Shown here one piece after another: positions 14,789 to 56,101 of a stretch of 64,000 bases of DNA (positions within the stretch are counted from its first letter, which is position 1; each line of letters starts with the position of its first letter). Origin of the DNA: a virus; the IMG/VR virus record IMGVR_UViG_3300021197_000592, positions 34,439 to 98,438 of that record. The stretch is one strand, 5' to 3'. The notes beneath the pieces are model-generated. The model was not told the origin of the DNA. It saw nothing but the letters and a program-made list of their open reading frames with translations, and ran no database searches. Both the position numbers and the translations under genes were made by a program.

Positions 14789-15117
14789 TAGTTAACACAG
14801 GGAAAGAAGCGTTGGCAACAACAATGGCAAGCACATACACGAAGGTAAAGGTTGGAAATGGAGGGGATGATACTGCTGCTTCACAAAGCGCGTTAGACTC
14901 CTTTGTGGCAGAGAAAACTGTCACTCCCTCTGTTATAGGGTCACAATTGGTTTGGACTGCAACATTCACAGGTGCAGAGTTAGGGACACAAGGAGTATCA
15001 GAACTAGGCATATTCGATACTTCCAACACGTTATTGAGCCGAGTCACGTTCACAAACACCGGGGTTGTAGCGTCAGCGGATACTGTGACATTTACAATTA
15101 GAGTGGAGGTAGACTGA
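14785..15117 (+). CDS. Tail-fibre attachment/collar-like protein
   Basis: IVNTGKEALA..VKVGNG..ELGIFD..LLSRVTF resembles fibre N-terminal anchoring domains (DUF3751-like). Confidence 0.55.
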   Translation: MIVNTGKEALATTMASTYTKVKVGNGGDDTAASQSALDSFVAEKTVTPSVIGSQLVWTATFTGAELGTQGVSELGIFDTSNTLLSRVTFTNTGVVASADTVTFTIRVEVD

Positions 15118-21100: not shown

Positions 21101-24100
21101 TATTGCTAATGCGAAACTAGCAAACTCTAGCATTACCGTAAGTGATGGCTCTAACTCAACTGCTACTGCTCTTGGTGGAACGATTACCTTTGCAGGTACG
21201 AGTAATGAAACAACTGTAGCAGAAAGTAGTGGTACAGTTACAATAGGATTACCGGATGCGATAACTGCTAATGTTACTGGTGACTTAACAGGTAATGCTG
21301 ATACGGCAACTGCATTAGCAAATGCAAGAAACATCGGTGGAGTATCATTTGATGGAACTGCAAACATCAACTTACCGGGAGTAAACTCGGCAGGTAATCA
21401 ATCAACTTCAAGTCACGCAAGGTTCCTTTATTCTAATGATGATAGAGATTTAGCCCCCGAAGATTTGACTTATGGTAGATATGTGCATACGTTTTTCAGC
21501 ACTAAAACGGGTTTAACTACGGGTTCAGCAGGTTCAGATTATGTAGATGCAATAGTGCTAAACACTTATTCAGGACAAAGCGGTGGTGATGCAAACGTTC
21601 TCGCCTTTAACAAAAACGCAAGTTCCCCCGCTATTTATCATTACACGGCAGACCAAGCCGGTACTAATTGGGGAACGCCAAAAACATTAGCATATACTGA
21701 TAGCAATATTACAGGTAATGCCGCTACTGCAACTACTGCAACTGCTTTGGCAAATGCACGAACAATTAGCGGAGTATCATTTGATGGTTCTGCGAACATA
21801 AACCTAGTTACAGATAGTAGTGCTAACACCAACTTCCCTGTTGTTTTCACAAACGAAACCAGTGGTGCATTGCATGATGACACAGGAGCATTACGATACA
21901 ATCCTTCTACTGGAACTCTACTTGTTCCTAATTTGAATGTATCAGGAACCACTACTCAAGTGAATACTGTGACGATGGAAGCGGCGAATGCCATTGTGTT
22001 TGAAGGAGCGACATCTGATGCATATGAGACTACTCTTACAATAACAGACCCTACTGCGGATAGGACAATTACTCTGCCAAATGAAACAGGAACACTCGCA
22101 TTAATTTCCGATGTAACTTCTGCGGCAGGAGATGGAGTTACTCTAGCAAATGGTGTAGATAACAGAATAGTCACGGCTACTGGTGCGGCGGCATTGAATG
22201 GTGAGGCAAACCTAACATTCGATGGAAGCGTATTAACTGCACCTGCAATAACAATGGGTAATATTAAACTAAGAAGCACTAATGAAATTGAAACAGATAG
22301 TGGTGCAATACATCTACAATACAATACGGGTAATGCTGTCAATATCGGGTATGCTAGTTCAGACTCAATCCTAGCGCATTGGGGAGAATATGATTTAACA
22401 GGTAGAATACATATTGATAGAAATGTAGATTCTGCTACTGATGCAACGGGTTCTGCTGCTATATTCATTGATTATGATTCATCAGGAACTAATACTCCCG
22501 GTCAAGATAATGAGCATTATGCAATTTATATTGACCAAGATAACTCATCAACTGCTGGTGGTTCAGGTTCAGATGAAATAGAGATGGCAGGTATTTACGT
22601 TGACCAAAGACAAAGCGGTGATGCTAACAGACAATATGCTTTCCAAAGTTATCAAGAGTATGAACCTTCAACTGCACAAACTATTCATTCAATGGCTGCT
22701 GTGAGGACTTCTGTTAATTCTCATATGACTCATGCTAGTGCTACTTTAAGCAGCCTATATGGTCATTACAGCGATGTAAGAATAGAAAAGAATGGAGTTA
22801 ACACCAATTCCTATGCTGAATATAACTACATTGAAGTTAATGATGATAGGGAAAGTGATGTAGGGAACATCTATGGTTCATATAACCAAGTAGATATTGA
22901 AGGTGGTAATAGCAATTCAATATCAACAGGATATGTATATGGTGGTAGATACACAATAGACCACAACGATGACTCAGTTACCACCGCACATGGTTATCTC
23001 ATGTATCTTGATTGGCAAGGTGCTGCCAACGTAACTAATCCTTGGGGATTATATGTTACTGGTGAGACAAAGAATTACTTCTCAGGTAATGTCGGTATAG
23101 GCACTACGAGTCCTTCTGAAGCCCTGCACATTAGAAGTTCTAGCGACCATCCATTAGTATTGGAAAATGACCAAAATGCCGCTTATGTTGGTATCCAATT
23201 CAGCGACCACGCAGGAGGAAGTTATGCACAGAAGGGCGAGTTCAGATTCAATCACGCAGATGGTTCATCACAAGGTAGTGGTGCTTCGTTCACCTTTACT
23301 ACAACAGAATCAGACTTGAGTATAATTGGTGGTAAATTCATCAGCGCAGTTGGTTCAGCGAGTGAACCCGGATTTGGATTTAGTGGCGATGTGGATAATG
23401 GTATGTTCCATCCGGCAACAAATGAAATAGCATTTACTACCGCAGGGGCGGAAGCAGTAAGGTTAGATGCTTCAGGTAATGTCGGAATAGGCACTACGAG
23501 TCCCGATTATGCATTAGACGTAGCAGGTAATATCGGTGTAGACAATATAATTTATCATAATGGAGATGGTAATACTTACCTCAATTTCCAAGACGATGAT
23601 TTCAGAATTGTTGTAGGGAATGATTTAGCGTTCCATTATGATGAATCGGGTACTTCTGTCTTGCACCTATCGTATAACGGGGAAGCAGACGTAAACATTG
23701 GTAATGGTCATTTCTTCTTCGGAGGTTCACAAGGTTCGTATGATACTAAAATGGGAATAGGCACTACTGCTCCCGGTAAAACTCTACACGTTTCTGATGG
23801 TTCAACAAGCGGAATTACAGGTGGGACTAATGCCGCCTTATTGATTACTGATGATGCTAACCCGCGTATTTACTTTGAAGATGTAGGTGAGGGTTCAGGC
23901 GATAGAGTCATGGATATAATGTATGATTCTGAATCATTATCGTTTAACTCCCTAAATGACGCGGCATCTGCATATGATACTCAAAACATAATGGTGATAA
24001 ATCGAGATGGTAATGTCGGAATAGGCACTTCAAGCCCTGATGGTAATTTGCATATATCATCAGGAACTTCGGGAGATTGCACAGTTATCATAGGGGCAGA

Positions 24101-24905
24101 TACAGATAACAATGCAGAAGGAGATGTGCCTCGTCTTTGGTTTAGAGCAGATAACAACATAAACGAAGGTGCTATTCAACTGAGTGATAACGAATTAGAT
24201 ATCATATCAAACGCCAATACAAATAGCGCAATAAGATTCCTAACCGGAACTACTAGCAATACAGGAACAACCGACCCCGCTACAAGCGCATCTGAAAGAA
24301 TGAGAATTACATCTGCTGGTAAAGTTGCAATAGGTAGTACAAGCGCAACTGCCACACTAGATGTGACAGTCGTAGGAAGCAACACTAGCACAAGTGGTAT
24401 TGCTTTCGGTGATGCCAGTAAAGGATATTTGGCCGCAGGTTCAAGTTACGTTTCATTCGCAACAAATGACGGCACTACAAGAATAGCCATAGACAATGGT
24501 GGAGATAATGTAGGGAACGTAGGGATAGGAACTACAACTCCTACACATAAACTAGAGGTAAATGGTTCATTCGCCGCAACTACCAAGTCTTTCGATATAG
24601 AACACCCAACGAAAGAAGGCAAGAGATTGCATCACGGTTCTCTTGAAGGGCCGGAACACGGTGTCTACATCAGAGGTAGATTAGAAGGAGACACAATAGA
24701 ACTACCTGACTACTGGCTAGGTCTAGTTGATGAGGATACAATCACAGTTCAACTAACTCCTAACAAGGGATTCCAACAGATTTACGTTGACCACATAGAG
24801 GACAACAAGGTGTATGTCGGAACTCAGACTGATACTCCGATAGACTGCTTCTACTTCATACAGGCAGAGAGAAAGGATGTCGAGAAAATGGTGGTGGAAT
24901 ACTAA
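15117..24905 (+). CDS. Giant tail fibre/adhesin (3262 aa)
   Basis: Repeats AKIADDAV, GNADTATALAxARxIxGxSFDG, QLAGSIANAKLANSS, GNVGIGTTSP; C-terminal KSFDIEHP..HGSLEGPEHGVYIRG domain common at marine phage fibre ends. Confidence 0.85.
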   Translation: MVNSNPGFLTTLSATPNTRIVDGTDNIHSGIINALNVATGGNAVISGFNITQEDGGTYTQYDVATGKILRDGILVSVSARSDIAPGVGARADNDWYATVVVDSSNVIQIRTGGSGVSTASVSTLTASDIPVAIIKYPAGTDHDAVDRPVQFLGYNGSTRGLSILNSGSETLRINANATLTKGSATLTLPSSTGTIALTSDITYTSAISEGNSGLIPSGGVGTSNIANDAVTYAKMQNVSGTDKILGRDSSGAGIVEEMTPANVRTMLGIETGATADQSDAEIETAYHNQVAQVSSAERTAGNSTAIKRYTPADIKSMIDAHQTDTNTDVTVANLKTKLNSDFGGDFTIGTQSNDTAILSGHLTVGGNLTVNGATQTINSTVVTIDDPVFTLGGDSAGTNDDKDRGIEFKWHDGANPKVGFFGFDDSVGKFTFIPDSTNSSEVFSGTAGTIVANLEGAVTGNASTATALATSRNFSITGDVTAGAIGFTGAGNVALSTTLADDAVATAKIADDAVTSAKIADATIATGNLADDSVTFAKMQDTSTNNRVLGATTAGTIGEVQVATAMVADDAITSAKIADDAVGADQLASNAVVNASVASNAAIAQSKIDGLVSALSGKEPSQTIGDGLDRTSATLKVDIDGLTIENGIDRTADFIMYDDATNGLRRINPANLFGLLIASDVPDISSAYRATGTALVNADISNSAAISADKIADGSTNKVFTATLKSKLDGVAAGATAGADWSSNVSNISVANSQLAGSIANAKLANSSVTINSNSLNLGGTLTLDTDDFAEGTNKFYTDERVDDRVNTLITDGEGITTTYNDSSNTLTLAAELATTSNKGVASFSSAHFDVTSGAVSIKAASISDSQIASNGSIAQSKIANLVSNLSDKIENLGDLSITSSATELNVLDGIPATLTATELGYVDGVTSAIQTQLNSKLSSVAVADLTDINSLSTSINTNSTHTQLATAKAVKDYITQQQVEDRTYTISATLDGGSTPLLTISDQFGGSSTVAVTGGDRITTTVISDRLHISDSGKGGVASAAFNQGLLTLTHDDGTTTTATVPDSTTDAHGLMTDDQFDKLAAIEAQADVTDKANVVASLGLLNESDTLYLGDAGNDTTVRVRGNFFVDGTTTTINQTEINVQDAIKFEGQTADDHETILRIIDPTADRVISLPDITGTVVTTGDSQTIATGMIANLGVTTGKIASNAVSSGKLATGAVATAKIADDAVTGAKIDFIDDSIAATDTHIMVADGTDYNNVAMSGDATLANDGVLTIANLAVETGMLANLGVTTAKIAADAITGAKIADDAINSEHYTNGSIDEAHIADNAVTVSKISGLTSLGSGTVISSAERTKLSGIATSADVTGTTNVNAAGAVMHTDIPDSDTGFVKRTGSETYDIDTNTYLTSLAVTGLSDIAQLEQNLASITDDHAGLATAKAVKAYVDSIPGGVGGMSFVLEDGDGTELTIADSKEIKFVPASSLLTINWTDVDNGTDADPYDLTFTVDNDLANYDNSSSSFATTTALTNATAATAITGKVLTNLGSGTGGAIAAGDTILAAMQKLETRTALNDAKVTNTDVNVNVSNLTARLPQITESVTIGDATDVTVTTSGALVVTGNLTVNGTTTTLDTTNLAIEDKNIVLGTGNSGSEVLDATGLTLEGGSGDDVTFQYNASADRMELKHGSAFEDFKAGTILAAFTGDLTGDVTGNADTATTLATARSIAGKSFNGSADITIATTDLSDISALDTDLSSVSANDDSLASAKAIKAYVDAQVDTEDTIAELNDTNIGSLSAGHLLIYDSTAGVFDNAIPTGSDTSTIDMTVTGGDGTLAISADLKDPNSLTEMTDDGASSTRTAATADQILVWEDDPGAFRKMTLANLSDFAVQNGAGGISTFKTISVSGQDDIVADDTADTLTLTAGSGITIANTAASDTIAFSIAAGAIANTMLANDSVSFGGVSLDLGQSDATPAFDLADATNYPTSSLSGTITNAQLAGSIANAKLANSSITVSDGSNSTATALGGTITFAGTSNETTVAESSGTVTIGLPDAITANVTGDLTGNADTATALANARNIGGVSFDGTANINLPGVNSAGNQSTSSHARFLYSNDDRDLAPEDLTYGRYVHTFFSTKTGLTTGSAGSDYVDAIVLNTYSGQSGGDANVLAFNKNASSPAIYHYTADQAGTNWGTPKTLAYTDSNITGNAATATTATALANARTISGVSFDGSANINLVTDSSANTNFPVVFTNETSGALHDDTGALRYNPSTGTLLVPNLNVSGTTTQVNTVTMEAANAIVFEGATSDAYETTLTITDPTADRTITLPNETGTLALISDVTSAAGDGVTLANGVDNRIVTATGAAALNGEANLTFDGSVLTAPAITMGNIKLRSTNEIETDSGAIHLQYNTGNAVNIGYASSDSILAHWGEYDLTGRIHIDRNVDSATDATGSAAIFIDYDSSGTNTPGQDNEHYAIYIDQDNSSTAGGSGSDEIEMAGIYVDQRQSGDANRQYAFQSYQEYEPSTAQTIHSMAAVRTSVNSHMTHASATLSSLYGHYSDVRIEKNGVNTNSYAEYNYIEVNDDRESDVGNIYGSYNQVDIEGGNSNSISTGYVYGGRYTIDHNDDSVTTAHGYLMYLDWQGAANVTNPWGLYVTGETKNYFSGNVGIGTTSPSEALHIRSSSDHPLVLENDQNAAYVGIQFSDHAGGSYAQKGEFRFNHADGSSQGSGASFTFTTTESDLSIIGGKFISAVGSASEPGFGFSGDVDNGMFHPATNEIAFTTAGAEAVRLDASGNVGIGTTSPDYALDVAGNIGVDNIIYHNGDGNTYLNFQDDDFRIVVGNDLAFHYDESGTSVLHLSYNGEADVNIGNGHFFFGGSQGSYDTKMGIGTTAPGKTLHVSDGSTSGITGGTNAALLITDDANPRIYFEDVGEGSGDRVMDIMYDSESLSFNSLNDAASAYDTQNIMVINRDGNVGIGTSSPDGNLHISSGTSGDCTVIIGADTDNNAEGDVPRLWFRADNNINEGAIQLSDNELDIISNANTNSAIRFLTGTTSNTGTTDPATSASERMRITSAGKVAIGSTSATATLDVTVVGSNTSTSGIAFGDASKGYLAAGSSYVSFATNDGTTRIAIDNGGDNVGNVGIGTTTPTHKLEVNGSFAATTKSFDIEHPTKEGKRLHHGSLEGPEHGVYIRGRLEGDTIELPDYWLGLVDEDTITVQLTPNKGFQQIYVDHIEDNKVYVGTQTDTPIDCFYFIQAERKDVEKMVVEY

Positions 24906-26182: not shown

Positions 26183-26964
26183 TGGGTTTCGGTAATGGTC
26201 TTACTCTTGCTTCTCCCCACAGGATTCTCTTCAATGTAGATGCCAAGAATACTAAGTGCTATTCTGGTAGTGGTACAACCGTAACTGATTCTATCTCTGG
26301 AACCACTCTCTCATTGAACAATGGTGCGGCATTCTCCAATGGAGCGTTTGCCTTTGATGGTTCAAACGATGGACTGAAAGCAAGTGCGGTTATTCCCGGT
26401 ATGGATTTCCAATACACTCAGGAGTTCACGTTAGAAGTAGTCGCTAAGGTGAAGGAGACTGGTAATGGTTTTCTCATAAACAATAGAGGCGCAAGTGATG
26501 GTACGCAGAACTATCGTGGTTGGGCGTTATTCTCTTCCGGTAGTAGTCCCAATACGATTATCAAAGGGACTATCGGAATGTACAAGGATTCAGCACATCA
26601 TTGGGTTGGGACAGATTGCACCGCCGCAGATTTCACTAACATCGCATACGACAAATGGTGTCACATAGTCTACTCATACGCAGGTAATGGTATAGAGGCC
26701 AGTCTGTTTCTGAATGGTGTCGATAAGAGCGATTATGCCAACCCACCCAATGATAACACAGATGTGATTTATGATGCTAACAACGTAGCAGATACGATAA
26801 ACTACGATTCTGACAACCTGATTTCAATTGGTATAGATAGCGTGAATGACTCTTCCTACGCAAGTTATAGTGATATTGCAATCGCTAGAGTATATGATAT
26901 TGCGCTCACTCCAAAGGAAGTCTTGAAGAACTTCAATTCACTTAGAGGGAGGTTCGGATTGTAA
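26182..26964 (+). CDS. LamG/concanavalin A-like virion protein
   Basis: True start likely ATG 26182 (GGAGG RBS, TAATG). VDAKNTKCYSGSGT, FAFDGSND, WCHIV, RVYDIALTPKEVLKNFNSLRGRFGL. Confidence 0.85.
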   Translation: MGFGNGLTLASPHRILFNVDAKNTKCYSGSGTTVTDSISGTTLSLNNGAAFSNGAFAFDGSNDGLKASAVIPGMDFQYTQEFTLEVVAKVKETGNGFLINNRGASDGTQNYRGWALFSSGSSPNTIIKGTIGMYKDSAHHWVGTDCTAADFTNIAYDKWCHIVYSYAGNGIEASLFLNGVDKSDYANPPNDNTDVIYDANNVADTINYDSDNLISIGIDSVNDSSYASYSDIAIARVYDIALTPKEVLKNFNSLRGRFGL

Positions 26965-28280
26965 TGGGAGTAGCAGGTGGTTCTAATATCGCTACGCCTA
27001 GCAGTCTAGGTTTCTCCTTCGACCAATACAACAGTAAGTCACAGAAGGGCAAGGCTTCTATCAACGTAGTGCTGAATCAAAATCTACATGCTGGATGGTC
27101 ACAAAGTTATACAGAAGGAATAGAGTGGAATATGATTGACCCGCCAGTAGGTATTACTGCTCCTGTTGTGTCTTTTCACGATGATGGAACCGGAAATGGT
27201 TATTGGTATTCCTACGGTGACCATGCACCACAGGCTAACAGTACCCAATATTCATATTCCATATATGTGAAGACGACAGATAAGACTGGTGCAAATATTA
27301 GAATGTACACCGCAAACAATCAGGAGAGCGATAGGGTGACTCTAGCATACAAGTATTTCACACCCGAAGGTGAGACAAATTCCTCATATGTTCTGCTTAC
27401 TGGTGCAGACGAGAACTTAGCAGATGAGAGAGGATGGATTAGATTAGAATGGGACAATGCCTTTACCACTGATTCGGATTGTGATTCAGATAGCGTCAGT
27501 CACAGATACAATAGTCTTCAATCAGACCCACACATAGAGAGACTATATCTCTGCGCTCCACAATTAGAGGCGAATGATGTTTGCACTCCTTATGTTCCAG
27601 TAGAAGACTTTGCAAATCAGTTAACGAGGAAACAAACTCCGACCAGTGGGTATAATCTAACATCGGTGAGAGGCAATGCATTGCACAATCTAGTTACTAG
27701 TGACGCTACGGCAACTGAGAACGTGACTTTCTTGGGAGACAATACGATTACCTTCGCAAGCGGAAATAACTTCCAAACAGGAGATATATCCTATCCTACT
27801 GCATTTGACCAAGACTTCTCACTTGAGATATGGATTTACCATGACAGTAGTAATACTTGGGCGAATTCATACAGGGGGAGATTAGTCGGTAGGGGTTCCT
27901 ATGCAGGTTCACATGGATTATGGCGACACCCTACTAATGGAGTAGTTAGTGCGTGGGTCAGGTCTGGTGGAACTAGCAAGGAAAGAACGACTACTTTGAA
28001 TGATAATGCTTGGAATCATGTAGTGATGACATGGGCAAATGATTCTCTTTTGGCGATATACAAGAATGGGGAACTAGGGCAATCATATGCCCCCGGCGAT
28101 ATATCAGGAAATGCACCAGATACAGGAACTTGGATAGTCGGAGGTTCCGGTGCGGCAAGTGGGGCTTCTGGTAGCAACTATATTGGCAAAATCGCCAAAG
28201 TACAAATATACAAAAGTGCGCTCACAGCCAATCAGGTGAAGCAGAACTTTGCGGCGCATAGGGTGAAATTCGGGTTGTGA
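26964..28280 (+). CDS. Carbohydrate-binding + LamG virion protein
   Basis: YSYSIYVK..GWIRL..APQLE module followed by FSLEIW, WNHVVMTW, IYKNG, QIYKSALTANQVKQNF. Confidence 0.8.
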   Translation: MGVAGGSNIATPSSLGFSFDQYNSKSQKGKASINVVLNQNLHAGWSQSYTEGIEWNMIDPPVGITAPVVSFHDDGTGNGYWYSYGDHAPQANSTQYSYSIYVKTTDKTGANIRMYTANNQESDRVTLAYKYFTPEGETNSSYVLLTGADENLADERGWIRLEWDNAFTTDSDCDSDSVSHRYNSLQSDPHIERLYLCAPQLEANDVCTPYVPVEDFANQLTRKQTPTSGYNLTSVRGNALHNLVTSDATATENVTFLGDNTITFASGNNFQTGDISYPTAFDQDFSLEIWIYHDSSNTWANSYRGRLVGRGSYAGSHGLWRHPTNGVVSAWVRSGGTSKERTTTLNDNAWNHVVMTWANDSLLAIYKNGELGQSYAPGDISGNAPDTGTWIVGGSGAASGASGSNYIGKIAKVQIYKSALTANQVKQNFAAHRVKFGL

Positions 28281-33916: not shown

Positions 33917-34600
33917 TTATATCACCTGTTTATCTTCTGAGTTTAACAACCCATGAATTCTTTCTGCTAACACCTTGCCGAACCCATCTAGCATAGCAAT
34001 CTCCGATGGTGGCGTTTCTCCTATTTCCATAACAGAACCAAACTCATCAATGAGTAGTTTGGCTTTCTTCTCACTTATTCCCGGTATGGTTGTGAGTACA
34101 TCTAATCTCAAATCAGTGGTACTGATTCTCTTTTGTTTAATCAGTCTAGGATTGTACACATCCCTAGCGATTGGTTGCATCTTGCAGACCACACAAATCA
34201 TGTGAGCCGCAGTCTTCGCATCTTTGACCCATAGGATGCTTGAGTCCAAATCAAGTATTATCTTACCCATAGCCCCATGAAACTTATTGGATACCGTGTT
34301 GAAGTGTCCTTGACCATATGCCTTGTAGGAATCGAATGCTGACTTGAAGTCACCATGCACAATCACCACGTTGTTGTCGAATGCTCTATCCATGTTGTCT
34401 AGTTGGTTCCACAGTCTCTTGTTCATCACGGACTGTAGGAAATCAAACGAAGATTTGGCTTCAAAACAAACGTCATTGAAAACATAGTCACCAATGTCCA
34501 ACCATACCTTCTCGTATGGGATGTTCATCTTCGTAGCCTTGTCGATAACATAAGCAGTCAAATCAGAGTCTTCCCTACTATCAATAACTAACTTACTCAT
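33917..34600 (-). CDS. ERCC4/XPF-family nuclease with HhH
   Basis: VIDSRE, GDYV, EAKS..DF..S, RL..QL; two HhH motifs (IPGISEKKA, LDGFGKVLA). Confidence 0.9.
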   Translation of the reverse strand: MSKLVIDSREDSDLTAYVIDKATKMNIPYEKVWLDIGDYVFNDVCFEAKSSFDFLQSVMNKRLWNQLDNMDRAFDNNVVIVHGDFKSAFDSYKAYGQGHFNTVSNKFHGAMGKIILDLDSSILWVKDAKTAAHMICVVCKMQPIARDVYNPRLIKQKRISTTDLRLDVLTTIPGISEKKAKLLIDEFGSVMEIGETPPSEIAMLDGFGKVLAERIHGLLNSEDKQVI

Positions 34601-35898: not shown

Positions 35899-36087
35899 TT
35901 ATATCAACTCAAATACTTTCGCTATCAATACTAACGACAGGAATATGTTCACCCCTGCCGCTAAAGTCCTAAACAAGGCCATCGTAGCGAAATGGTCTTG
36001 CCCCCAATGTTCTATGTCATCTCCGTTCAGAACCACTCCCCCAACGTGCTTTGGCTCAAATCCCTCTTTATCTGCATTGTGTCCCAA
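35899..36087 (-). CDS. Small membrane protein (start uncertain)
   Basis: C-terminal hydrophobic helix; stop abuts next start. Confidence 0.4.
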   Translation of the reverse strand: MGHNADKEGFEPKHVGGVVLNGDDIEHWGQDHFATMALFRTLAAGVNIFLSLVLIAKVFELI

Positions 36088-36899
36088 CCCATCGCTCTGA
36101 AAACCGGCTCTGCCTTCTTAACAACTGAATCAGCATAGTGCGCCCAATCCGGGTCATACACATCAAAGTCAGCCTCAGTCAAACCTGCCACATAGTTAGG
36201 TGTGACATAATCCTGCTTAATTGGATGCCAATACTTGATGTGCCTCTCTTTGACTCTGAGAAAGAGATACGAGTCCTCAATAGGAATATCATTCATAGTG
36301 TTGTAGTAAACAACTCCCTCGACACCAGCACCAACTGTTGGCCTCTTACCCTCAAGGGTTTGAAGGTTCAAGTTGTTACAACATGGTCCCTTGGTCAACT
36401 CATTCAGAGTCTTCTTCCTCTTGCAATTAGAACACTTAACTGAAAACCTAGCCTCTCTATATCGACTACGCTTCAATACCTCACTAATCGGAATCTGTCC
36501 TGATAAAACTTGATTATATCTATCTCTCAAAAAATCCGCTATTTCTTGTTCAGTATTATTCTCAACCCACATGTTGAGTACAGCCAACTGAGTTTCTTTC
36601 GCAAGTTTGGTTTCTGATAATCTCTTAGCAGTAAACCCTGTCATCACGAACTCTTTCTCATCCAAGAACTTACCATCCTTCCAAGTAATCAAACCAGCAT
36701 TCCTGTTCTTCGTTGCTCCAACACCTAGACTCTCAAAGTATTTCTCAAACTCTATGGCGACTGGATGTTCATCTAACTCTAGTAAGTTGGGAAAGAACTT
36801 TCTGACATGTTCATTCAGTTCCTCAAGCACTCCTTCTGCTTGCTCTACTGAATCGACAGTACAGTATATCGAATCTGTATGTCCATAAACCACCTTCAT
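36027..36899 (-). CDS. polB: Family B DNA polymerase, C-terminal half (motif C, thumb, PIP box)
   Basis: Begins KVVYGHTDS; EFEKYF..KNRNAG..GF..KR; CxxC/CC insert; ends QSTLGEWF (PIP). Confidence 0.9.
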   Translation of the reverse strand: MKVVYGHTDSIYCTVDSVEQAEGVLEELNEHVRKFFPNLLELDEHPVAIEFEKYFESLGVGATKNRNAGLITWKDGKFLDEKEFVMTGFTAKRLSETKLAKETQLAVLNMWVENNTEQEIADFLRDRYNQVLSGQIPISEVLKRSRYREARFSVKCSNCKRKKTLNELTKGPCCNNLNLQTLEGKRPTVGAGVEGVVYYNTMNDIPIEDSYLFLRVKERHIKYWHPIKQDYVTPNYVAGLTEADFDVYDPDWAHYADSVVKKAEPVFRAMGWDTMQIKRDLSQSTLGEWF

Positions 36900-37537: not shown

Positions 37538-39223
37538 TTAACTCATCTCCTTGACTTTGAAAGCGGCTAGACGTATTGCTTCTCTCGCACTAGCAGTGAT
37601 GCAAGCGGCAAGTTCGACATTAGCCCATCCGAATCCTTGATACGCGATGATACCATAGAAAGATGCCATGAGCCTCTTGACTGCAAGTTGGTTATTATTC
37701 CACTTGTTGTAATCACTTTGGGACTCAGCATTCCTCGCCAAGGATTTGTATTCGTTTCTCAGTTGTTTCAACTCTAGAACTGCCTTTGGTAGTAGGCCCA
37801 AATCATCCACCTTGAAATATTTCATATCGTATTCCTTTACATCGCTGAAATCTTTTGGGGTTCTGATATTGACTGCAAACGCAGTAGGTTCTTCCGATAC
37901 GGTTTCCCAACTTATATTCCTAGCGATTATCATAGATGGATACAGTTGTGCGTAGTCGAATGCAGCGACACCTAAATGGAGTCCATTTGTAGACTCACTG
38001 AGAGGGTCATACACCATCGCACCATCATAGGACACCCGCTGCCCTTTCACGCCCGTAGGAGCCTTCCAAGGGGCGTTACGCATGAAGTATATCCCACCCA
38101 TGTTGCTTGCGTAGAAACAAGCATCGAAGGGAGCCTTGAGAAGCCTTTGGAGTGATACGATTGCTTCTGTTGTGTGTTGCATTTCATCTATTCGGACTAA
38201 TAGTTCAACGTCTACTTTAGCATACTCAATATATCTCTGAGTGTCCTCAAGCCATCCTCTAGCAAAGAACTCGTTCTTATCGGGAAACTTTTCACTGACT
38301 AACTTCTTCTGTCCTAGAACAGTTTCAGAAATGTAATCAAGAGCCATTGATGCAAGTGTTCCTCTCTGTGCATCGTTCCATTGTCTCTCAAATGCCAAGT
38401 CAAGCGGAACACAAATTCTACCCTTGATTGGTTGCGATATGGGAGAGTACGAAGTAACTGTTCCTTCATCCATTGTTGGCTTACTCTTGTTCCAAGAGAC
38501 ACCAATAACTTCATTCCACGGTGACATTAGTTTCGGGTCCACTCCATGATACACCATTCTCTCAATCAACTTCGGTAAGTCGAACTTCCAACCGAACCAA
38601 GAGATGAGCATGTCGGGGTCTTTGTCTATCATATCAGATAGGAAGCATATCAACATCTTCTCCTCAGAGTCGAACAGATGGCTAGTTGGAACATCATACC
38701 CTTGCTCCAAGAATGACTCCATGTCTGGTTGCCAAAAGTAAGTACGATACTTCCTATCATAGTTATCATACATGGCGATACATGTGATAGCACCATCATG
38801 CTCACCGCCTTGCATCCACTCCATGTCCCAATACCACTTACGCATCTTGTACTCAGGCATCTCATCGATGCAATCAACAGCGTACCTGTAGTGGTGTGAA
38901 ACATCTGCTTCGTATGTCTCAGGGAAATGATTCCTCAGACGATATGAGTATGATGGTCTTGATGGACTCCAAGTCACCTTTACTAGTTCATCTCCTTCTA
39001 GGCTCTCGTAATCGCCTTCTTCGTATTTCGCTTTCAACTTGAAGTGTCCCCACTTGTCCTTGAACTGAATTGTGCTTTCTTGGCCGTCTTCATACTCAGG
39101 ACTCTTCTTCACGAAGAAGTGTGGTGGAAACTCATGGAAGGAAACCTCCTTGCTCTCTCTTTCAAGAGTCTCGGGGTTTCTCCATCTAAGTCCTATTCCT
39201 TCTTTCACTTTGTCTATTATCAT
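37538..39223 (-). CDS. polB: Family B DNA polymerase, N-terminal half (exonuclease, motifs A and B)
   Basis: WDMEW (ExoI), FDLPKL (ExoII), YAKVD (ExoIII), FDYAQLYPS (motif A), QLAVKRLMASFYG (motif B); stops at AREAI...EMS. Confidence 0.92.
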   Translation of the reverse strand: MIIDKVKEGIGLRWRNPETLERESKEVSFHEFPPHFFVKKSPEYEDGQESTIQFKDKWGHFKLKAKYEEGDYESLEGDELVKVTWSPSRPSYSYRLRNHFPETYEADVSHHYRYAVDCIDEMPEYKMRKWYWDMEWMQGGEHDGAITCIAMYDNYDRKYRTYFWQPDMESFLEQGYDVPTSHLFDSEEKMLICFLSDMIDKDPDMLISWFGWKFDLPKLIERMVYHGVDPKLMSPWNEVIGVSWNKSKPTMDEGTVTSYSPISQPIKGRICVPLDLAFERQWNDAQRGTLASMALDYISETVLGQKKLVSEKFPDKNEFFARGWLEDTQRYIEYAKVDVELLVRIDEMQHTTEAIVSLQRLLKAPFDACFYASNMGGIYFMRNAPWKAPTGVKGQRVSYDGAMVYDPLSESTNGLHLGVAAFDYAQLYPSMIIARNISWETVSEEPTAFAVNIRTPKDFSDVKEYDMKYFKVDDLGLLPKAVLELKQLRNEYKSLARNAESQSDYNKWNNNQLAVKRLMASFYGIIAYQGFGWANVELAACITASAREAIRLAAFKVKEMS

Positions 39224-49209: not shown

Positions 49210-49305
49210 CTATTCCTCCTCATCGGATTTCTTCGTAAAGGTAAACCCGTATTCTTCCAGCGTTGTTTGTCTTGTGTTTTCTCCGGTTATTTTTCTCATT
49301 TTCAT
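49210..49305 (-). CDS. 31-aa micro-protein with PIP-box-like motif
   Basis: MKMRKITGENTRQTTLEEYGFTFTKKSDEEE; ATGA overlap with the JAB stop. Confidence 0.5.
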   Translation of the reverse strand: MKMRKITGENTRQTTLEEYGFTFTKKSDEEE

Positions 49306-49847
49306 TCCTCCTCCTTTTTTATTTGTTCATCTATTTCTATTACAGACAGTTCCTCTTCCTCTGTCTTGTAGTCTATCACTGTCTCCGGTGGTTCCATTAG
49401 TCCGAACAACACCTTCTTGCCAATCTTTGTCTTCAAGTCATAAGCAAGATACTCGTTGTCGCCCAGCACAATCGCCGACTCTAGGACAGGCTGCCACGTT
49501 TTCAAAGATTTCCAATCAGTCATGCTCCAAAAGGCAGTGCCAAATGGATGCGTGTGTATCCAACATTTGATTGGTAACTTCATCGGTGAGCCATTGATTA
49601 ACTCGTCTTCGTGTCCCTCAAAGGATACGAAACCGGGTGTCCCGTAACTGATGTACAGGTTCTCATTCGCATCAATCATCACTTGTACTTCCCTCGGTAT
49701 GTCGAATGCCTTCTTTGATGCATTCCAAATCACACTTAGGAAAGTCTCAGTCGTATTGTTAGGATACAACCAGACTATATCATCGTTCATCTGCTCATAT
49801 GCTTCTCTTATATTTTGCTTCCAATTCTTATTCATTATTTCTTCCAT
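49302..49847 (-). CDS. JAB/JAMM (MPN+) metalloprotease
   Basis: RE...HTH-PFGTAFW-S-MT-D = E-xn-HxH-x7-S-x2-D. Confidence 0.9.
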   Translation of the reverse strand: MEEIMNKNWKQNIREAYEQMNDDIVWLYPNNTTETFLSVIWNASKKAFDIPREVQVMIDANENLYISYGTPGFVSFEGHEDELINGSPMKLPIKCWIHTHPFGTAFWSMTDWKSLKTWQPVLESAIVLGDNEYLAYDLKTKIGKKVLFGLMEPPETVIDYKTEEEELSVIEIDEQIKKEEE

Positions 49848-49848
49848 T

Positions 49849-50091
49849 TTATTGTCCTCCCATTTGCACCATCAGTGAATCTTGGCTGTTCTGGAACTCA
49901 TGATATGCTTGGTGTCCCGCTATGAAACCACCAGCATGTCTCTTCGTTCCCAAGAACTCCTCTCCACAAACAGGACATGTTACCTTCACTATCTCTGCTT
50001 GCAGATAATACCCATCCGTGGATATTATATCCATTATTTTATCTAAGTCATCATCTGTTAAATCGTCTATATTACTATCTTCTTTACTCAT
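49849..50091 (-). CDS. C2H2-type Zn-finger protein
   Basis: CPVCGEEF...HQAYH. Confidence 0.65.
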   Translation of the reverse strand: MSKEDSNIDDLTDDDLDKIMDIISTDGYYLQAEIVKVTCPVCGEEFLGTKRHAGGFIAGHQAYHEFQNSQDSLMVQMGGQ

Positions 50092-50657
50092 TCTTCTTCA
50101 CTCCATTCTCTTTTCTTTTCCCAGTTCTCATATTGTTCATCATAGTGTTCAAAATACCCGGTATCATGCGGATTGAACATCTTCACCTCATGTATGTAGC
50201 ATTCCCTGCACATGATGTGTCTAGCAATTACTGGCATCTTCCCGCTACTTCTAAAAGGAACATAATCCTTAGCACCTCCAACTAGGTACTCTTCGCAGTT
50301 GAAGCAAACGGTATCTCTATTCTCATTGCTCTTCACTAACAAAGTCAAGGGAACCATGTACTTGCTACCACGCGAGTAGAGAGTTCCTCTCACAATGTTT
50401 GGTAATCGACCAATTGCCCTAGCAAAGTAATCCTTAGATGTATACAGTTGCTTCAAACCTACTTTGCGATTTTGTGACCTATGCCTCGGATGTACGTCTT
50501 TCAATCTAGTCAATGGCACAGTCGTCAGGTATTCCAATACCTCACGCATCGTACACATGTCACCCACATTCAGATAATCAAAGAACTCCGCAAGGACTTC
50601 CTTCACTTTCTTGTGGTTGAAATTTATTACTTGTCCTTTGGGCATACTATCACACAT
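50088..50657 (-). CDS. HTH-like + half-RING Zn protein
   Basis: C-terminal CFNC-x25-HIMCREC. Confidence 0.55.
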   Translation of the reverse strand: MCDSMPKGQVINFNHKKVKEVLAEFFDYLNVGDMCTMREVLEYLTTVPLTRLKDVHPRHRSQNRKVGLKQLYTSKDYFARAIGRLPNIVRGTLYSRGSKYMVPLTLLVKSNENRDTVCFNCEEYLVGGAKDYVPFRSSGKMPVIARHIMCRECYIHEVKMFNPHDTGYFEHYDEQYENWEKKREWSEEE

Positions 50658-51249
50658 TCATAATTATCTTGTCAATAACATCATCATGATTGTTCCACCA
50701 TCTCTGAATCCATTGTGTGGCAATGCCAGCAATCGCCATATGCATAGTGTTCATCGTGTCAGCCGCGCCTTCCCATCCCTCTCCTTGACAGGAGAAGGAA
50801 CCATCGGGTCCACTAAGCAGGGCATCGACCAAATCCTCATCCACCTTGTATGAGATGAGTGCCGCATTCCTACCCTGTGCGCGTAAATCTAGCCACTTAA
50901 TCTTGGCAGAGTCTCCATACCCCTGTCGGTATAGAAGACGGCGTACTGCAAGGTTATCTGCACAACAGATTACCAAGTCATATCCCTTGAGTTGCTTGTC
51001 AAGTAGGACTTGATAGGGATGCACAGTACAACTGCCTGACCATGTGTCTACCTTCAATTCACCAACATCGTGTTCGCTATACATCTGGTTTCCAAGATTG
51101 CTCTTCTCAACCGTGTCATCATCGAACACTGTGATGTTGTATAGATGCACACCGGGGGTGTCTGTTCTACATCTCTGGTTTATTCTATTCAGGTTGTGAA
51201 TAAGGTAACTACCTATTCCACCTGCTCCTATTATCATTATCTTTCTCAT
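50650..51249 (-). CDS. ThiF/E1-family Ubl-activating enzyme
   Basis: IIGAGGIGS, DDDTVEKSNLGNQ, CADNLAVR, WLDLR, candidate catalytic Cys in FSCQ; no CxxC Zn motifs. Confidence 0.9.
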   Translation of the reverse strand: MRKIMIIGAGGIGSYLIHNLNRINQRCRTDTPGVHLYNITVFDDDTVEKSNLGNQMYSEHDVGELKVDTWSGSCTVHPYQVLLDKQLKGYDLVICCADNLAVRRLLYRQGYGDSAKIKWLDLRAQGRNAALISYKVDEDLVDALLSGPDGSFSCQGEGWEGAADTMNTMHMAIAGIATQWIQRWWNNHDDVIDKIIMNV

Positions 51250-51446
51250 TGTTTTTCATCTCCATATATTGTTCTAGTGTCAAGTTTAGTCCTCTTTCCT
51301 TCATCTCAAAATACAACTGCTTGACCAGTCCCATCTCAAGTTCTCCGTCTTTCTGCTCTCTTTTGTTTCAAGTAGCATCTATCGCATATGATGTAGGAAC
51401 GTCTGTACTTCTTCCTACCACACTTGCAATAATCCTCTCCTTTCAA
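51209..51446 (-). CDS. Two micro-ORFs (36-aa Zn finger 51446-51336; 41 aa 51334-51209)
   Basis: MKGEDYCKCG...ICDRCY... (TTGA overlap with the TFB stop) and MGLVKQLYFEMKERG... Confidence 0.45.
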
Positions 51447-52354
51447 TAGCGCACACCCGATACAAAGTCCTCGACTTGCATATCAGATAATGTCTTCCTC
51501 TCTATTTGGAATATCTCACTCAATGTCACCACTGCTCCTCTCAGGCCAACATGTGAAGAGTTCCAGTGTTTACAGATGGCAGATTGTGTTATGTCATACC
51601 TCGACATCATCTGACCCGACATCCATATGCAAGCCGCTAACATCGTATCTGCGAATCTCATATCCAATGATTCGATGTGTCTTGCCACATACTCGACTAC
51701 TCTCAATGCATTTGCCCTGAAATAATCATCTATATCCACTTCCATTCTTGACATCAGAGTTTGCGCTCTCTGCTCATGGTTCCTAGTAATGAACACACCA
51801 GAGTTTCTCTGATGTCTCGCTATTCTTCTAGCGAACTTTGAGATGTCATTTGGTTTGACCCGCGTTCTTCTAGAATGTTCCTGTATGTTACATACAATGT
51901 CTGCTTCTTTGAGAACATAGAACGTAAGAGAGGCGCATCTTCTCTCAACGTCCAAACCGCGAAACAATTCTCTCTTCATCATATCATAGTATTTCTGCGT
52001 TCTTCTCTTCAAGTCGCTTGATACATTGTAGTACGAGAGTGTGCTGTTGATGAGGAGTCTTGCTGTTTTGTCTGCTTCGGTTTCAGGCTGGGTTCTCACT
52101 TGCTCCCTGTAGAGAGCGAACCTATCCTTGTTACCATAGGCATCTGACTTCCTAATGAAGGAACCCAAACTACCAATGGTCTTGCTTCTTTTATCCTCAT
52201 CGGATATTGAAATCATGTGTGTAGTCTCCTCAAAGGGATTCACCACAAGAACAAGACCACACTCATCACAAGTCTTCTCACCCAATCTATCGATGTAAGT
52301 GAAAGCCGTGCTACCGCACTCTTTGCATGATTCACTGACTGTCATAGGATTCAT
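51443..52354 (-). CDS. tfb: Transcription initiation factor B (TFIIB) homologue
   Basis: CKECGS..GEKTCDECGLV Zn ribbon; two cyclin-like repeats (FRG...AS..FY; LAACIW..TQ). Confidence 0.85.
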   Translation of the reverse strand: MNPMTVSESCKECGSTAFTYIDRLGEKTCDECGLVLVVNPFEETTHMISISDEDKRSKTIGSLGSFIRKSDAYGNKDRFALYREQVRTQPETEADKTARLLINSTLSYYNVSSDLKRRTQKYYDMMKRELFRGLDVERRCASLTFYVLKEADIVCNIQEHSRRTRVKPNDISKFARRIARHQRNSGVFITRNHEQRAQTLMSRMEVDIDDYFRANALRVVEYVARHIESLDMRFADTMLAACIWMSGQMMSRYDITQSAICKHWNSSHVGLRGAVVTLSEIFQIERKTLSDMQVEDFVSGVRY

Positions 52355-53610
52355 TTGTTCATCGCCCCTATGTTGTACTTCTTGTATCTTGCATCCTTTC
52401 TCTTATCGTAAGGGATGAGAAAATCATTGAATCTATTCTTACCGAACCACTCCTCTACCATAGGTGATAGTTGTCTGAGTGTGTATATCATCTCACCTGC
52501 ACCCTTGTCATTCATCAGCATCATCGCCCTTGATGATAGTTGGTCACCAATGCTAGAGTTGTGGTGTAGGTTGTCGATGCATATCGGTCCCTCCCACTTT
52601 TCGCCATTCCAATAGAACGTGTTGACGTTCTGGTGTCCACGCTTCCATCCCTTGTTGGCATCTGCGACAATCCAGTCAGCATGAATACCTCTAACGAACA
52701 GAGCCATGTATCCCTCATGCATAACCACTTGGATGTTATCGAACTCATCGGCTAGTTCATAGACTAACTCAAACGCTCTTTCCTCTACCATTTTCTGCGT
52801 TCTGTTCTGTAGTAACCATGCTATCATCAGTTTCTTCTGACTCTCAGATGGTTCCTCACCCATGAGTGCAGTCCACAGTCTCGTAGGTGATATGCGATAC
52901 CACTTCTTGGAACGGCTTGAGTTCAGACCGAATGTGTTTACGAATGTGTTTAGTTCTGAGATGGTCATCGAACCCCATATTCCCTCTGATATCTCAAGTG
53001 CGATATCCTTCTTACCAACCATCTTCGTGTTGATTCTGACTTCACGCCTAATCCCTCCGTCCCAAAAGACATAGGGGGTTCTGTTCTCTAGAGCGTACAT
53101 CACATGTGGTGGTGTATCAAGCACCCTATCGATATACTCCTCAAGACTGATTGCGCTTCTATCCATAACGCTCCTGTAGAATATCTTAGCCAAGGCCAAT
53201 GATATGTCATTCAATGACATCCTCTGACTGTTCATGGAATACACGGTGTTGTTCTTCTGTATCCATATCATGGCATCTCCATCATCTCTCTTGAAAGTGA
53301 TGATAGTAGTCCACTTCTCATATGCACTGTTGTCATAATTATAGTACCTGCTTCTTCTTCCATGTGTGTTTGGTAACACGTGATGTCTGATAGTGTAGGC
53401 AATGTTCTCCGTCATCGGTTCAAGCGTCTTGGTGAACCTGCTCGTAATATCCAACGGGGGGACTCTAACCCTTCTCTCACCTATACGGGTCGGAGTCGTT
53501 CCCACCTTCCAACGAACGCCATTGACGCGCATGAGAAAAGTAGTCTTATCGCTTTCTGAACCATCACCTGTTCTCGGTATTGTAAATCGTATTTTCATAA
53601 TAATCACCAT
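52351..53610 (-). CDS. Hypothetical protein with C-terminal E2/UBC-like motif
   Basis: HQNV...GPICIDNL resembles UBC HPNV/I...GxICLDIL; Ubl/E1/JAB context. Confidence 0.5.
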   Translation of the reverse strand: MVIIMKIRFTIPRTGDGSESDKTTFLMRVNGVRWKVGTTPTRIGERRVRVPPLDITSRFTKTLEPMTENIAYTIRHHVLPNTHGRRSRYYNYDNSAYEKWTTIITFKRDDGDAMIWIQKNNTVYSMNSQRMSLNDISLALAKIFYRSVMDRSAISLEEYIDRVLDTPPHVMYALENRTPYVFWDGGIRREVRINTKMVGKKDIALEISEGIWGSMTISELNTFVNTFGLNSSRSKKWYRISPTRLWTALMGEEPSESQKKLMIAWLLQNRTQKMVEERAFELVYELADEFDNIQVVMHEGYMALFVRGIHADWIVADANKGWKRGHQNVNTFYWNGEKWEGPICIDNLHHNSSIGDQLSSRAMMLMNDKGAGEMIYTLRQLSPMVEEWFGKNRFNDFLIPYDKRKDARYKKYNIGAMNK

Positions 53611-53926
53611 ATTCTTCTTTATTCACTCTGTAGTATTCCTTTCTATCATACAGTTCTTGTATGTCATCCATGTCCTGTAAAGCCGAATACCCTTGCTTCA
53701 CAAGTCTCAATATCCCATGTCTCAATTCTCCTAATGAGATTGGGGATGGAGCCAAGGCATCTTCACTACCCTTGTATCTCCAATACCAAGTACGAACGCT
53801 TTCCTTAGCGCCCGCATTTGTCATTGAGTCTACTATTTCTTCCTCTATCGATAACCATGCCTTCGGATTATATTTCACAAGCACCACCTGCACAAGCAAC
53901 TTCGCCTTGCAGATTGGTATTATCAT
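53564..53926 (-). CDS. Hypothetical protein (start probably near 53880)
   Basis: Between nrdJ and the E2-like gene. Confidence 0.5.
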   Translation of the reverse strand: MIIPICKAKLLVQVVLVKYNPKAWLSIEEEIVDSMTNAGAKESVRTWYWRYKGSEDALAPSPISLGELRHGILRLVKQGYSALQDMDDIQELYDRKEYYRVNKEEYGDYYENTIYNTENR

Positions 53927-55736
53927 TGTATTCCTTGACCTGTGTTAGGTCAATCGATTGTAATTTAGCGAACATGTCCTCATATTGTTCTTTCTCGATA
54001 GCCTCAAACGGTGCTTGTGTGTAAACACCGTTATCGAATGGTAGAACAGAGATGCCATTGTAGTGTTCTCTGTTATCCCACATCCATTCTTTCACTACAT
54101 CCCACTCGTCATCTCTGACGTTGACTGTAGCAGAGACATTGTGTGAGTTGACTCCACTCACATGTCCCCTTCGTACCCACTCGATTGAATACTGCTTCAA
54201 TCTCTTCAACATGGAAAGAGCAGACTCCTCCCTTGTGATGATGTCACCTCTAGGTGCTTTCTGTGGTATGGCAAGTATTGCTTGATTGTCGTCCCACTCA
54301 TCATCTTCTACTAACTCAGGCAGCATCTCATTGAGATACAGATACATTGATTCATTCTTCATAACCCTGATTCTTCTTATGTAATACTCGGAGTACCAAG
54401 CATGTATTCCAGAAGAAGTGCCTAGTACCAAACTGGTAGTACCGGCGGGTTTCACACAAGTCACTCTTGCGGCTGAGTTTATCCCGAATTTGTCAGCATA
54501 TGCCTTGTTGACGATGACTGCACAATCAGACGCTCTTTCAAGGTTCAAGTCCTTTAGAGCATTGCTTGCTATACCAGTCATTGATATTCCGACAAGTGCT
54601 TCCCTCTCTGTTGTGGTCTTCCACGTTTGTCGTAGATAATGGAAGTCCGTGTAGCATGCTTGCATCGTTCCTATGATGGTAGCGGCTTCCACTCTCTCTT
54701 CCAAGTCCTTCTGACTGGAAACAGTGGATACGTTAATTTCACAGAGATTGCAGAACTGATGGTTCTTCAAGGAAATCTCCGCACATGGGTTTGTTCCCCA
54801 ATTCTTGTCATTGGAGAAGAATATCCCCGGCTCGCCAGTCTTGTTGGCCCTCGTCCTGTTCCAGAGGTCATCGAAGAACTCCTTCTCACACTTCTCTCTG
54901 ATGAGAACTGCTGAGTTGTTCGCTCTTGCTCTTTGTGGGTTAGTCTCCCAATAAAGACCGTTCTTTGAGTTAATCATCTCGTTGTCGTCTGCATTGAACA
55001 GACTAATCATAGCCGCTCTTCTGATACCACCAGCAAGGACGGCATCTGCGATGTGGCACATCATATCATGTGCTTCGATTGGTGTAATGTGATGACCATC
55101 CTCCATGTTCAGTAGCATGTTCTCTATGGTAACTATGCACTTCTTCAATGGGGCAGGGCCGGGTGCTTTACCACCGCTAGTCTTCAACGGGCTTCCCTTT
55201 GGTCTAATGTCTGAGTAGTCGAACCTTGGTGTTGTTCTCCTATCTCCTGTGTATGCGTTAAATAATACCTTGACTGCATCTGCCCATCCTTCTATCGAAT
55301 CAGCAACCAGATGCCTGTAAGTCCTCTCAGGATTAGGCTTCTGTATACTATCCAATTGTGATACGTGGTGTCTCTGAACAGAATACCCAACTCCTGTGCC
55401 GCCCAGCAACAGGAACATGGCTTCTGAAAACGCTATTGTAGAATCAATAGCCATGTACGCACAGTTGTATATTCTGTTCGGAGACAAGTCAATCGGCTTC
55501 CCTGCAAATTGCATGGAGCGCATGGATGGTAGCACTTTCTTGGTTAGAACGAAGTTGTCATAGACATAATCTATCTTCTCGTCAAACCCTTGAATGTGTG
55601 TGAATTTCCTCTTATGCATTTCCTTGTTTCTTCCTACAATCTCTGTCCAAGATTCCCTCCTGAATTCAAGAGGCAAGTATTTTGCATACTTCATGTTCGT
55701 TGTTATTTCTGACAATATTTCTTGTTGTAATTCCAT
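53868..55736 (-). CDS. nrdJ: Class II (adenosylcobalamin-dependent) ribonucleotide reductase
   Basis: LPSMR, NCAY, GTGVG, TNPCAEI, FCNL, VKPAGT, C-terminal CAGGACEI. Confidence 0.93.
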   Translation of the reverse strand: MELQQEILSEITTNMKYAKYLPLEFRRESWTEIVGRNKEMHKRKFTHIQGFDEKIDYVYDNFVLTKKVLPSMRSMQFAGKPIDLSPNRIYNCAYMAIDSTIAFSEAMFLLLGGTGVGYSVQRHHVSQLDSIQKPNPERTYRHLVADSIEGWADAVKVLFNAYTGDRRTTPRFDYSDIRPKGSPLKTSGGKAPGPAPLKKCIVTIENMLLNMEDGHHITPIEAHDMMCHIADAVLAGGIRRAAMISLFNADDNEMINSKNGLYWETNPQRARANNSAVLIREKCEKEFFDDLWNRTRANKTGEPGIFFSNDKNWGTNPCAEISLKNHQFCNLCEINVSTVSSQKDLEERVEAATIIGTMQACYTDFHYLRQTWKTTTEREALVGISMTGIASNALKDLNLERASDCAVIVNKAYADKFGINSAARVTCVKPAGTTSLVLGTSSGIHAWYSEYYIRRIRVMKNESMYLYLNEMLPELVEDDEWDDNQAILAIPQKAPRGDIITREESALSMLKRLKQYSIEWVRRGHVSGVNSHNVSATVNVRDDEWDVVKEWMWDNREHYNGISVLPFDNGVYTQAPFEAIEKEQYEDMFAKLQSIDLTQVKEYNDNTNLQGEVACAGGACEI

Positions 55737-55894: not shown

Positions 55895-56101
55895 TCAGAG
55901 TGAGCCTCCGACCATTGCCGGAATTAGGTTGACAGTATCAACCTCGTCCCAACTGATGTTCGGGATTTCCTGTCTCGATACCATCTCACCCTCAACGAAA
56001 ACCCAGTGTGTGGGGTGGTCGTTGATTTGGTCGATGACATCTGAAACAGTTACGTCTTCTAATACAGTGTGTCCTGTGTCATTCATTATTCTTAATTTCA
56101 T
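55895..56101 (-). CDS. Ubiquitin-like (beta-grasp) protein with GG-SL C-terminus
   Basis: 68 aa; MKLRI..TVSDVI..VFVEGE..DTVNLIPAMVGG|SL, a ThiS/MoaD/SAMP-type pattern; GGAGG RBS. Confidence 0.85.
   Translation of the reverse strand: MKLRIMNDTGHTVLEDVTVSDVIDQINDHPTHWVFVEGEMVSRQEIPNISWDEVDTVNLIPAMVGGSL

Follow-up and report, generated by a model that had tools for sequence, protein, structure and literature searches.

The window analyzed here, a stretch of 64,000 nucleotides, is the right-hand 64 kb (positions 34,439 to 98,438) of the complete 98,438-bp virus record IMGVR_UViG_3300021197_000592. The virus is a magrovirus, a tailed virus of marine group II archaea (Poseidoniales) that is abundant in the surface ocean. 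An open reading frame (ORF) on the minus strand of the window (52351..53610, ATG to stop) encodes a protein of 419 amino acids with an invariant cysteine and a C-terminal domain of UBC-like predicted topology. With modest confidence, we take this gene to specify a very divergent conjugating enzyme of the E2 type (UBC fold), belonging to a virus-encoded modification system that uses a ubiquitin-like protein (Ubl). Because the gene sits among viral genes for a Ubl, an activating enzyme (E1) and a JAMM protease, magroviruses probably carry a protein-tagging system of their own. Gene context and a weak fold similarity are the grounds for the E2 assignment; homology could not be detected at the sequence level.

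The E2-like protein and its invariant cysteine

A preliminary description of this DNA had proposed a 419-residue E2 candidate here, with its only cysteine in the sequence GPICIDNL. The ORF, the single cysteine and its surroundings were all found as described. Cys344 (codon at 52579..52581, minus strand), the candidate catalytic (thioester) residue, lies in EGPICIDNL (52567-52593). It was kept in 36 of 36 diverse homologues, in 27 of 27 reaching about 20% identity and in all 125 unique full-length members of the family, a conservation far above chance expectation. Among these 125 members, Q327, Q357, R361, D368, T377, W212, N269 and G308 were also invariant, and I345 and D346 were each present in 122. 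The helix after Cys344 holds a conserved GDQ...R...ND pattern (GDQ355-357, R361 and ND367-368). The canonical Cys motif of E2s is G-x-I-C-L-D. The viral G-P-I-C-I-D resembles this motif as well as the G-x-V-C-x-G of Prok-E2_D.

Models of the full-length protein and of residues 255-419 alone were built by AlphaFold2 with a 36-sequence alignment. The predicted local distance difference test score (pLDDT) was 83.5 for the full-length protein and 85.5 for residues 255-419, the latter with a predicted template modeling score (pTM) of 0.78. A UBC-like domain was predicted at residues ~269-400 (52411..52806, minus strand), formed by helix α1 (272-289), a β-meander (293-343) of five sequential strands with short loops, Cys344, a 10-residue loop, helix 354-366 and more short helices, the helical part spanning 354-385. 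Both models placed Cys344, as in the E2 superfamily, with the meander on one side and the crossover helix on the other: it follows the last strand immediately, and helix 354-366 begins 10 residues further on. Structure searches were run four times, and their top rows were nearly all E2, UEV, RWD or FANCL-ELF domains. The structure alignments covered residues ~269-397 of the viral protein end to end with E2 residues ~2-150 (100-116 residues aligned), and the fractional position of Cys344 (~58%) was equal to that of the Cys in Ubc13 and UbcH5. A Foldseek search of the full-length model against the PDB gave only noise, and a BFVD structure search with the E2-like model found only three unnamed members of its own family.

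In the models, the protein resembles canonical E2s (UQ_con, PF00179; UbcH5, Ubc13 and Ubc9) in its predicted arrangement of α1, antiparallel β-meander, Cys segment and crossover helix, and it has G-x-I-C-[IL]-D at an invariant Cys. E2s carry a conserved Asn/Asp after the crossover helix, and the viral N-D stands at the same place. In contrast to canonical E2s, the viral protein has no profile match and no HPN, its domain falls ~20 residues short of theirs and has an additional short strand ahead of the Cys, it bears a ~268-residue N-terminal region of no known fold, and it is encoded by an archaeal virus. The preliminary description had seen a parallel to HPN in an HQNV sequence preceding the Cys. 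HQNV is present at residues 326-329, but the parallel to HPN did not hold up, since H326 was found in only 40/125 members (32%) and N328 in 33/125 (26%); the conserved residues of this stretch were Q327 (125/125) and V329 (114/125). HPN in E2s comes after the fourth strand, whereas HQNV was placed at the start of that strand in both models and not in the loop following it. The spacing from HQNV to Cys344 is 16-18 residues, compared with ~8 for the HPN of canonical UQ_con, and the segment between the fourth strand and Cys344 is a variable, indel-rich loop.

No match outside the family was obtained in Pfam, PHROGs, PADLOC, NCBIfam, the PDB (phmmer and hmmsearch), the ESM Atlas or INPHARED phages (tblastn). 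The Pfam UQ_con profile (PF00179) matched none of 36 members (threshold E <= 10) and none of 10 further ones (E <= 1), and it had no match in the whole virus genome. We also compared the family with Prok-E2_D (PF14460), which is PRTRC protein B; its gene is carried, along with those for Prok_Ub, Prok-JAB and ThiF, by cassettes of bacterial mobile elements (class 6d; Iyer et al. 2006, PMC1779556). PRTRC cassettes on plasmids were located via the viral E1, were confirmed to encode Prok_Ub, alpha-hel2, Prok-E2_D, Prok-JAB and ThiF, and provided ten PRTRC-B proteins for an alignment. When the viral family or its C-terminal domain was compared with this 10-sequence profile by hhalign, no significant similarity emerged (E 0.1-0.54, probability < 1%). 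The alignment was confined to the Cys motif, with viral GPICIDNLH on GKICIGSAH and C344 on the catalytic C160; statistically empty, this correspondence may still be called suggestive. E2-like proteins that lack the classical His have been described from bacteria (PMC1779556).

The family itself is well delimited. There were 111 homologues at E <= 1e-41, from marine metagenomes and conserved over the full length, and a profile search of 1.84 billion proteins (representatives) yielded 193 cluster representatives, all of one compact E2-like family; among the 150 profile matches listed, no bridge to known E2s was present. No member carried a Pfam domain, and the few names given in the sources were "hypothetical protein" or gene-call coordinates. 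The gene was syntenic in ~150 viral contigs. A 4,062-nucleotide contig from the DNA run of an independent study covers 50959-55020 with 2 differences, which excludes faulty assembly as the origin of the gene sequence. In one study, short contigs from RNA libraries matched parts of the E2-like gene (52555-53048) and of the TFB, E1 and p80 genes described below at >= 95% identity; they were not counted as evidence of transcription because DNA carry-over is possible and a silent control stretch is lacking. Proteins of 150-200 residues starting at profile positions ~245-270 resembled standalone E2 modules. We rejected them as contig-end fragments because they begin at a conserved internal Met and the N-terminal pieces stop in the middle of a motif.

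The true start of the ORF may be Met5 (53596-53598), judging from a 415-residue cluster representative that is 100% identical and from the many homologues that begin at MKI. An ORF of 120 amino acids (53564-53926, minus strand) shares 47 nucleotides with the beginning of the E2-like ORF and was detectable in only 18 of the 80 loci described below. If this ORF is real, Met5 is the likelier start.

The N-terminal region (residues 1-268; 52807..53610, minus strand) was predicted to be α/β with no known fold. The preliminary description had rightly noted such a region but had put it at ~290 residues; its length is ~268, as the UBC-like domain starts with a helix at ~269-272. Residues 1-98 are variable, with a mean top-residue frequency of 0.27, and residues 151-254 (0.53) are as conserved as the UBC-like domain (0.48), including ENR175-177, E206 and W212. 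No internal repeat or duplicated UBC-like unit was found in the N-terminal region by hhalign of segments.

The Ubl, E1 and JAMM genes around the E2-like gene

The Ubl gene (55895..56101, minus strand) encodes a ThiS-like protein of 68 amino acids (ThiS, E=8e-4) ending in ...MVGG-SL. Its orthologues always end in (V/I)GG followed by 0-2 variable residues, and such a tail, as read from the sequences, is the mark of a trimmed precursor. The E1 gene (50650..51249, minus strand) encodes a minimal ThiF-type enzyme of 199 amino acids (Pfam ThiF, 2.5e-16) with GAGGIGS, CCADN and an invariant Cys154 in GSFSCQ. GxGxxG was intact in 76 of 76 orthologues, in which CCADN and the Cys in GSFSCQ were kept as well. 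The best named relative of this E1 is the PRTRC ThiF (1e-16), ahead of ThiF, UbaA (7.7e-8) and MoeB. The third gene (49302..49847, minus strand) encodes a JAMM/MPN+ metalloprotease of 181 amino acids that was recognized by its motif, HTHPFGTAFWSMTD (HxH-x7-S-x2-D); the motif was intact in 75 of 75 orthologues, and Pfam Prok-JAB matched only at E=0.098.

We examined 80 IMG/VR loci found via the E2-like protein and 77 found via the E1. In the 80 loci, the co-directional gene order Ubl - RNR - E2-like - TFB - E1 - (p80) - JAMM - ... - ligase was kept. The Ubl was present in 66 of them, the E1 in 76 and the JAMM protein in 75, with gaps only where contigs end. Reciprocally, 69 of the 77 E1 loci contained the E2-like gene, and the other 8 were cut before its position. 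Wherever a related locus had sufficient flank, the Ubl, E1, E2-like and JAMM genes, the components of a Ubl-E1-E2-JAB cassette, all ran in one direction within ~7 kb. The two genes that interrupt the Ubl-system genes are those for a ribonucleotide reductase (RNR; 53868-55736, minus strand) and for a TFIIB-like protein (TFB; 51443-52354, minus strand) with a Zn ribbon and a C-terminal region, the latter lying between the E2-like gene and the E1 in 77 of 80 loci.

Between the E1 and the JAMM gene lies p80 (49849..50091, minus strand), which encodes a zinc-finger-like protein of 80 amino acids (CxxC...H...H) ending in ...MGG-Q. It was found within the cluster in at least 43 of 80 loci. Its invariant motif is C..CGE.F.GTKRHAGGF..GH...HE, and 32 of 33 orthologues end in ...(M/L)GG followed by a single variable residue. 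The likeness to the S27ae zinc ribbon is weak and not significant (E=0.14). As a second diglycine-tailed small protein, p80 is possibly a second modifier or a substrate of the E1 and JAMM proteins. A "half-RING" protein of 189 amino acids (CxxC...HxxCxxC; 50088-50657, minus strand) was rejected as a core part of the cluster because just the two closest loci had it at the syntenic position (4 weak matches in all among 80).

The four-part logic of the viral set is that of PRTRC: a small Ubl with GG, a JAB/JAMM protein, a ThiF-type E1 and an N-terminally extended E2-like protein, carried on a mobile element. Both also have G-x-[IV]-C and, 5 residues after the Cys, a His (viral H349, in 70/125 members), as in GKICIGSAH. 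They differ in that the viral Ubl is ThiS-like instead of Prok_Ub, the viral E1 is ~70-80 amino acids shorter, the viral set has no alpha-hel2 or ParB partner, and its genes are interrupted by RNR and TFB. The SAMP/UbaA/HvJAMM1 system is likewise archaeal and likewise combines a GG modifier of ThiS/MoaD-like type with one ThiF-type E1 and a JAMM protein; the viral set has weak matches to the SAMP1 and UbaA models. Unlike that system, it adds a conserved Cys-bearing UBC-like protein, and its E1 is nearer to PRTRC ThiF than to UbaA.

Two features of the Ubl-system proteins deserve mention. Besides GG, the ThiS-like Ubl has three invariant histidines, in G-H11-T and H29-P-x-H32-W; they may form a metal or partner site, and we know of no such three-histidine feature in ThiS, MoaD or ubiquitin. 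The E1 is unusually small, with 185-206 amino acids across orthologues versus ~230-280 for the PRTRC ThiF proteins compared here, and little sequence follows its GSFSCQ Cys and a conserved QWIQRWF helix. A partner domain may be needed, possibly the N-terminal region of the E2-like protein.

Proposed function and alternatives

The interpretation as an E2, already put forward in the preliminary description, is favored by the UBC-like predicted topology, the invariant Cys and the Ubl/E1/JAMM context, and it has lost the support of the HPN parallel. As an E2, the protein would act as follows. The 68-residue Ubl precursor, with 0-2 residues past GG, would be trimmed by the JAMM protease. The minimal ThiF-type E1 would then adenylate the GG end and take the Ubl on Cys154, from which it would be handed to Cys344, which in the UBC-like C-terminal domain follows the β-meander and precedes the crossover helix. 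The conserved middle (151-254) and the variable N terminus would dock the E1 and/or select targets, which might be host or viral proteins; a separate ligase (E3) may therefore be unneeded. GDQ355-357, R361 and ND367-368 could hold the donor Ubl and aid the attacking lysine, like the E2 crossover helix and the Asn/Asp after it, and Q327 might, more speculatively, stand in for the Asn of HPN in its structural or oxyanion function.

Some caveats apply to the E2 reading. The whole replication module is syntenic, and co-occurrence is therefore not independent proof of a functional link. Two unrelated genes, RNR and TFB, are interspersed among the Ubl-system genes. In addition, the archaeal SAMP system conjugates without an E2. 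A predicted complex of two E1 copies, the mature Ubl and the E2-like protein scored 0.58, 0.70 and 0.50, compared with 0.00 for two partner-swapped controls; a control in which the E1 was replaced still reached 0.57, so the values lack specificity for the E1, and the prediction speaks neither for nor against binding.

The alternative that survives best, unlikely in our view though deserving real weight, is that the protein is a Cys-dependent enzyme or carrier unrelated to E2s. It could be a persulfide or sulfur-relay partner of the ThiS-like protein and the E1, or a replication enzyme modifying nucleotides or nucleic acids, the UBC likeness then reflecting a common α+β arrangement. However, the structure matches were almost exclusively to the UBC superfamily, with no mix of folds, and spanned the whole domain. 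A precursor with GG plus a tail and a dedicated JAMM protein are typical of conjugation systems (PMC1779556), the nearest named relative of the viral E1 belongs to PRTRC cassettes, which contain an E2, and the neighbouring genes that were scanned included no rhodanese, cysteine desulfurase or thiolation enzyme. We regard as decidedly improbable that the protein is a non-catalytic UBC/RWD-like adaptor or scaffold that binds the Ubl or replication proteins while the Ubl, E1 and JAMM proteins conjugate without an E2, as SAMP and UbaA do. UEV/RWD-type domains are defined by a missing active-site Cys (PMC1779556), which disfavors this explanation: FANCL ELF, UEV and RWD domains have no catalytic Cys, whereas Cys344 is the most conserved residue of the viral family, flanked by conserved I-D and followed by GDQ...R...ND on the next helix. 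A chance ORF or an assembly artefact is refuted by the 111 homologues, the 193 cluster representatives, the synteny, the independent contig and the confident full-length model (pLDDT 83.5).

A bolder form of the E2 reading, which we hold distinctly doubtful, is a self-contained E1-E2 cascade tagging host or viral proteins during infection, with a new UBC-like E2 family that has a built-in ~270-residue targeting module, no E3 and two GG-tailed modifiers (the ThiS-like Ubl and p80).

What is new here is an E2-like family that is a sequence orphan, lacks HPN, is N-terminally extended and belongs to a virus-encoded Ubl system. Ubiquitin, ThiF, JAB and MPN are not mentioned in the magrovirus papers examined, a review of archaeal tailed viruses or the ICTV's Aoguangviridae profile. 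Ubiquitin-system genes were previously undescribed in archaeal viruses, according to Rambo et al. (bioRxiv 10.1101/2021.07.29.454249). The Asgard "Nidhogg" viruses of that study are likewise archaeal viruses with ubiquitin-system genes, but only E1-like genes were reported for them, presumed to exploit the E2 and Ubl of the host, whereas magroviruses have their own Ubl, E1, JAMM protein and candidate E2. If the protein is an E2, abundant marine archaeal viruses would encode a complete Ubl machinery (modifier, E1, E2 and a deconjugating or processing protease), while archaeal viruses in the literature examined had been reported with at most E1-like genes. It would represent a new, sequence-orphan UBC branch without HPN, and provide a compact, testable set of four proteins for studying E2 catalysis in the absence of the canonical motif. 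It would also point to Ubl conjugation as a means by which viruses of Poseidoniales manipulate proteins of the host or the virus, and bear on the evolution of E1-E2 cascades in archaeal and bacterial mobile elements.

The virus and other genes of the window

The gene content of the window matches that of magroviruses (compared with PMC5434244 and PMC10768690), with a split family-B DNA polymerase, RFC, an archaeal-type ATP-dependent ligase, and ERCC4 and Cas4-like nucleases. The TFIIB homologue, a class II RNR and two giant ORFs are further genes of magrovirus type. The family-B DNA polymerase consists of two ORFs (36027-36899 and 37538-39223, minus strand) with ~640 bp between them, and the same split has been described for some magroviruses. 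The giant ORFs (7172-14788 and 15117-24905, plus strand) encode 2,538 and 3,262 amino acids in the structural arm and are adjoined by a gene for a laminin-G/ConA-like protein (26964-28280); their products are probably tail fibre or adhesin proteins.
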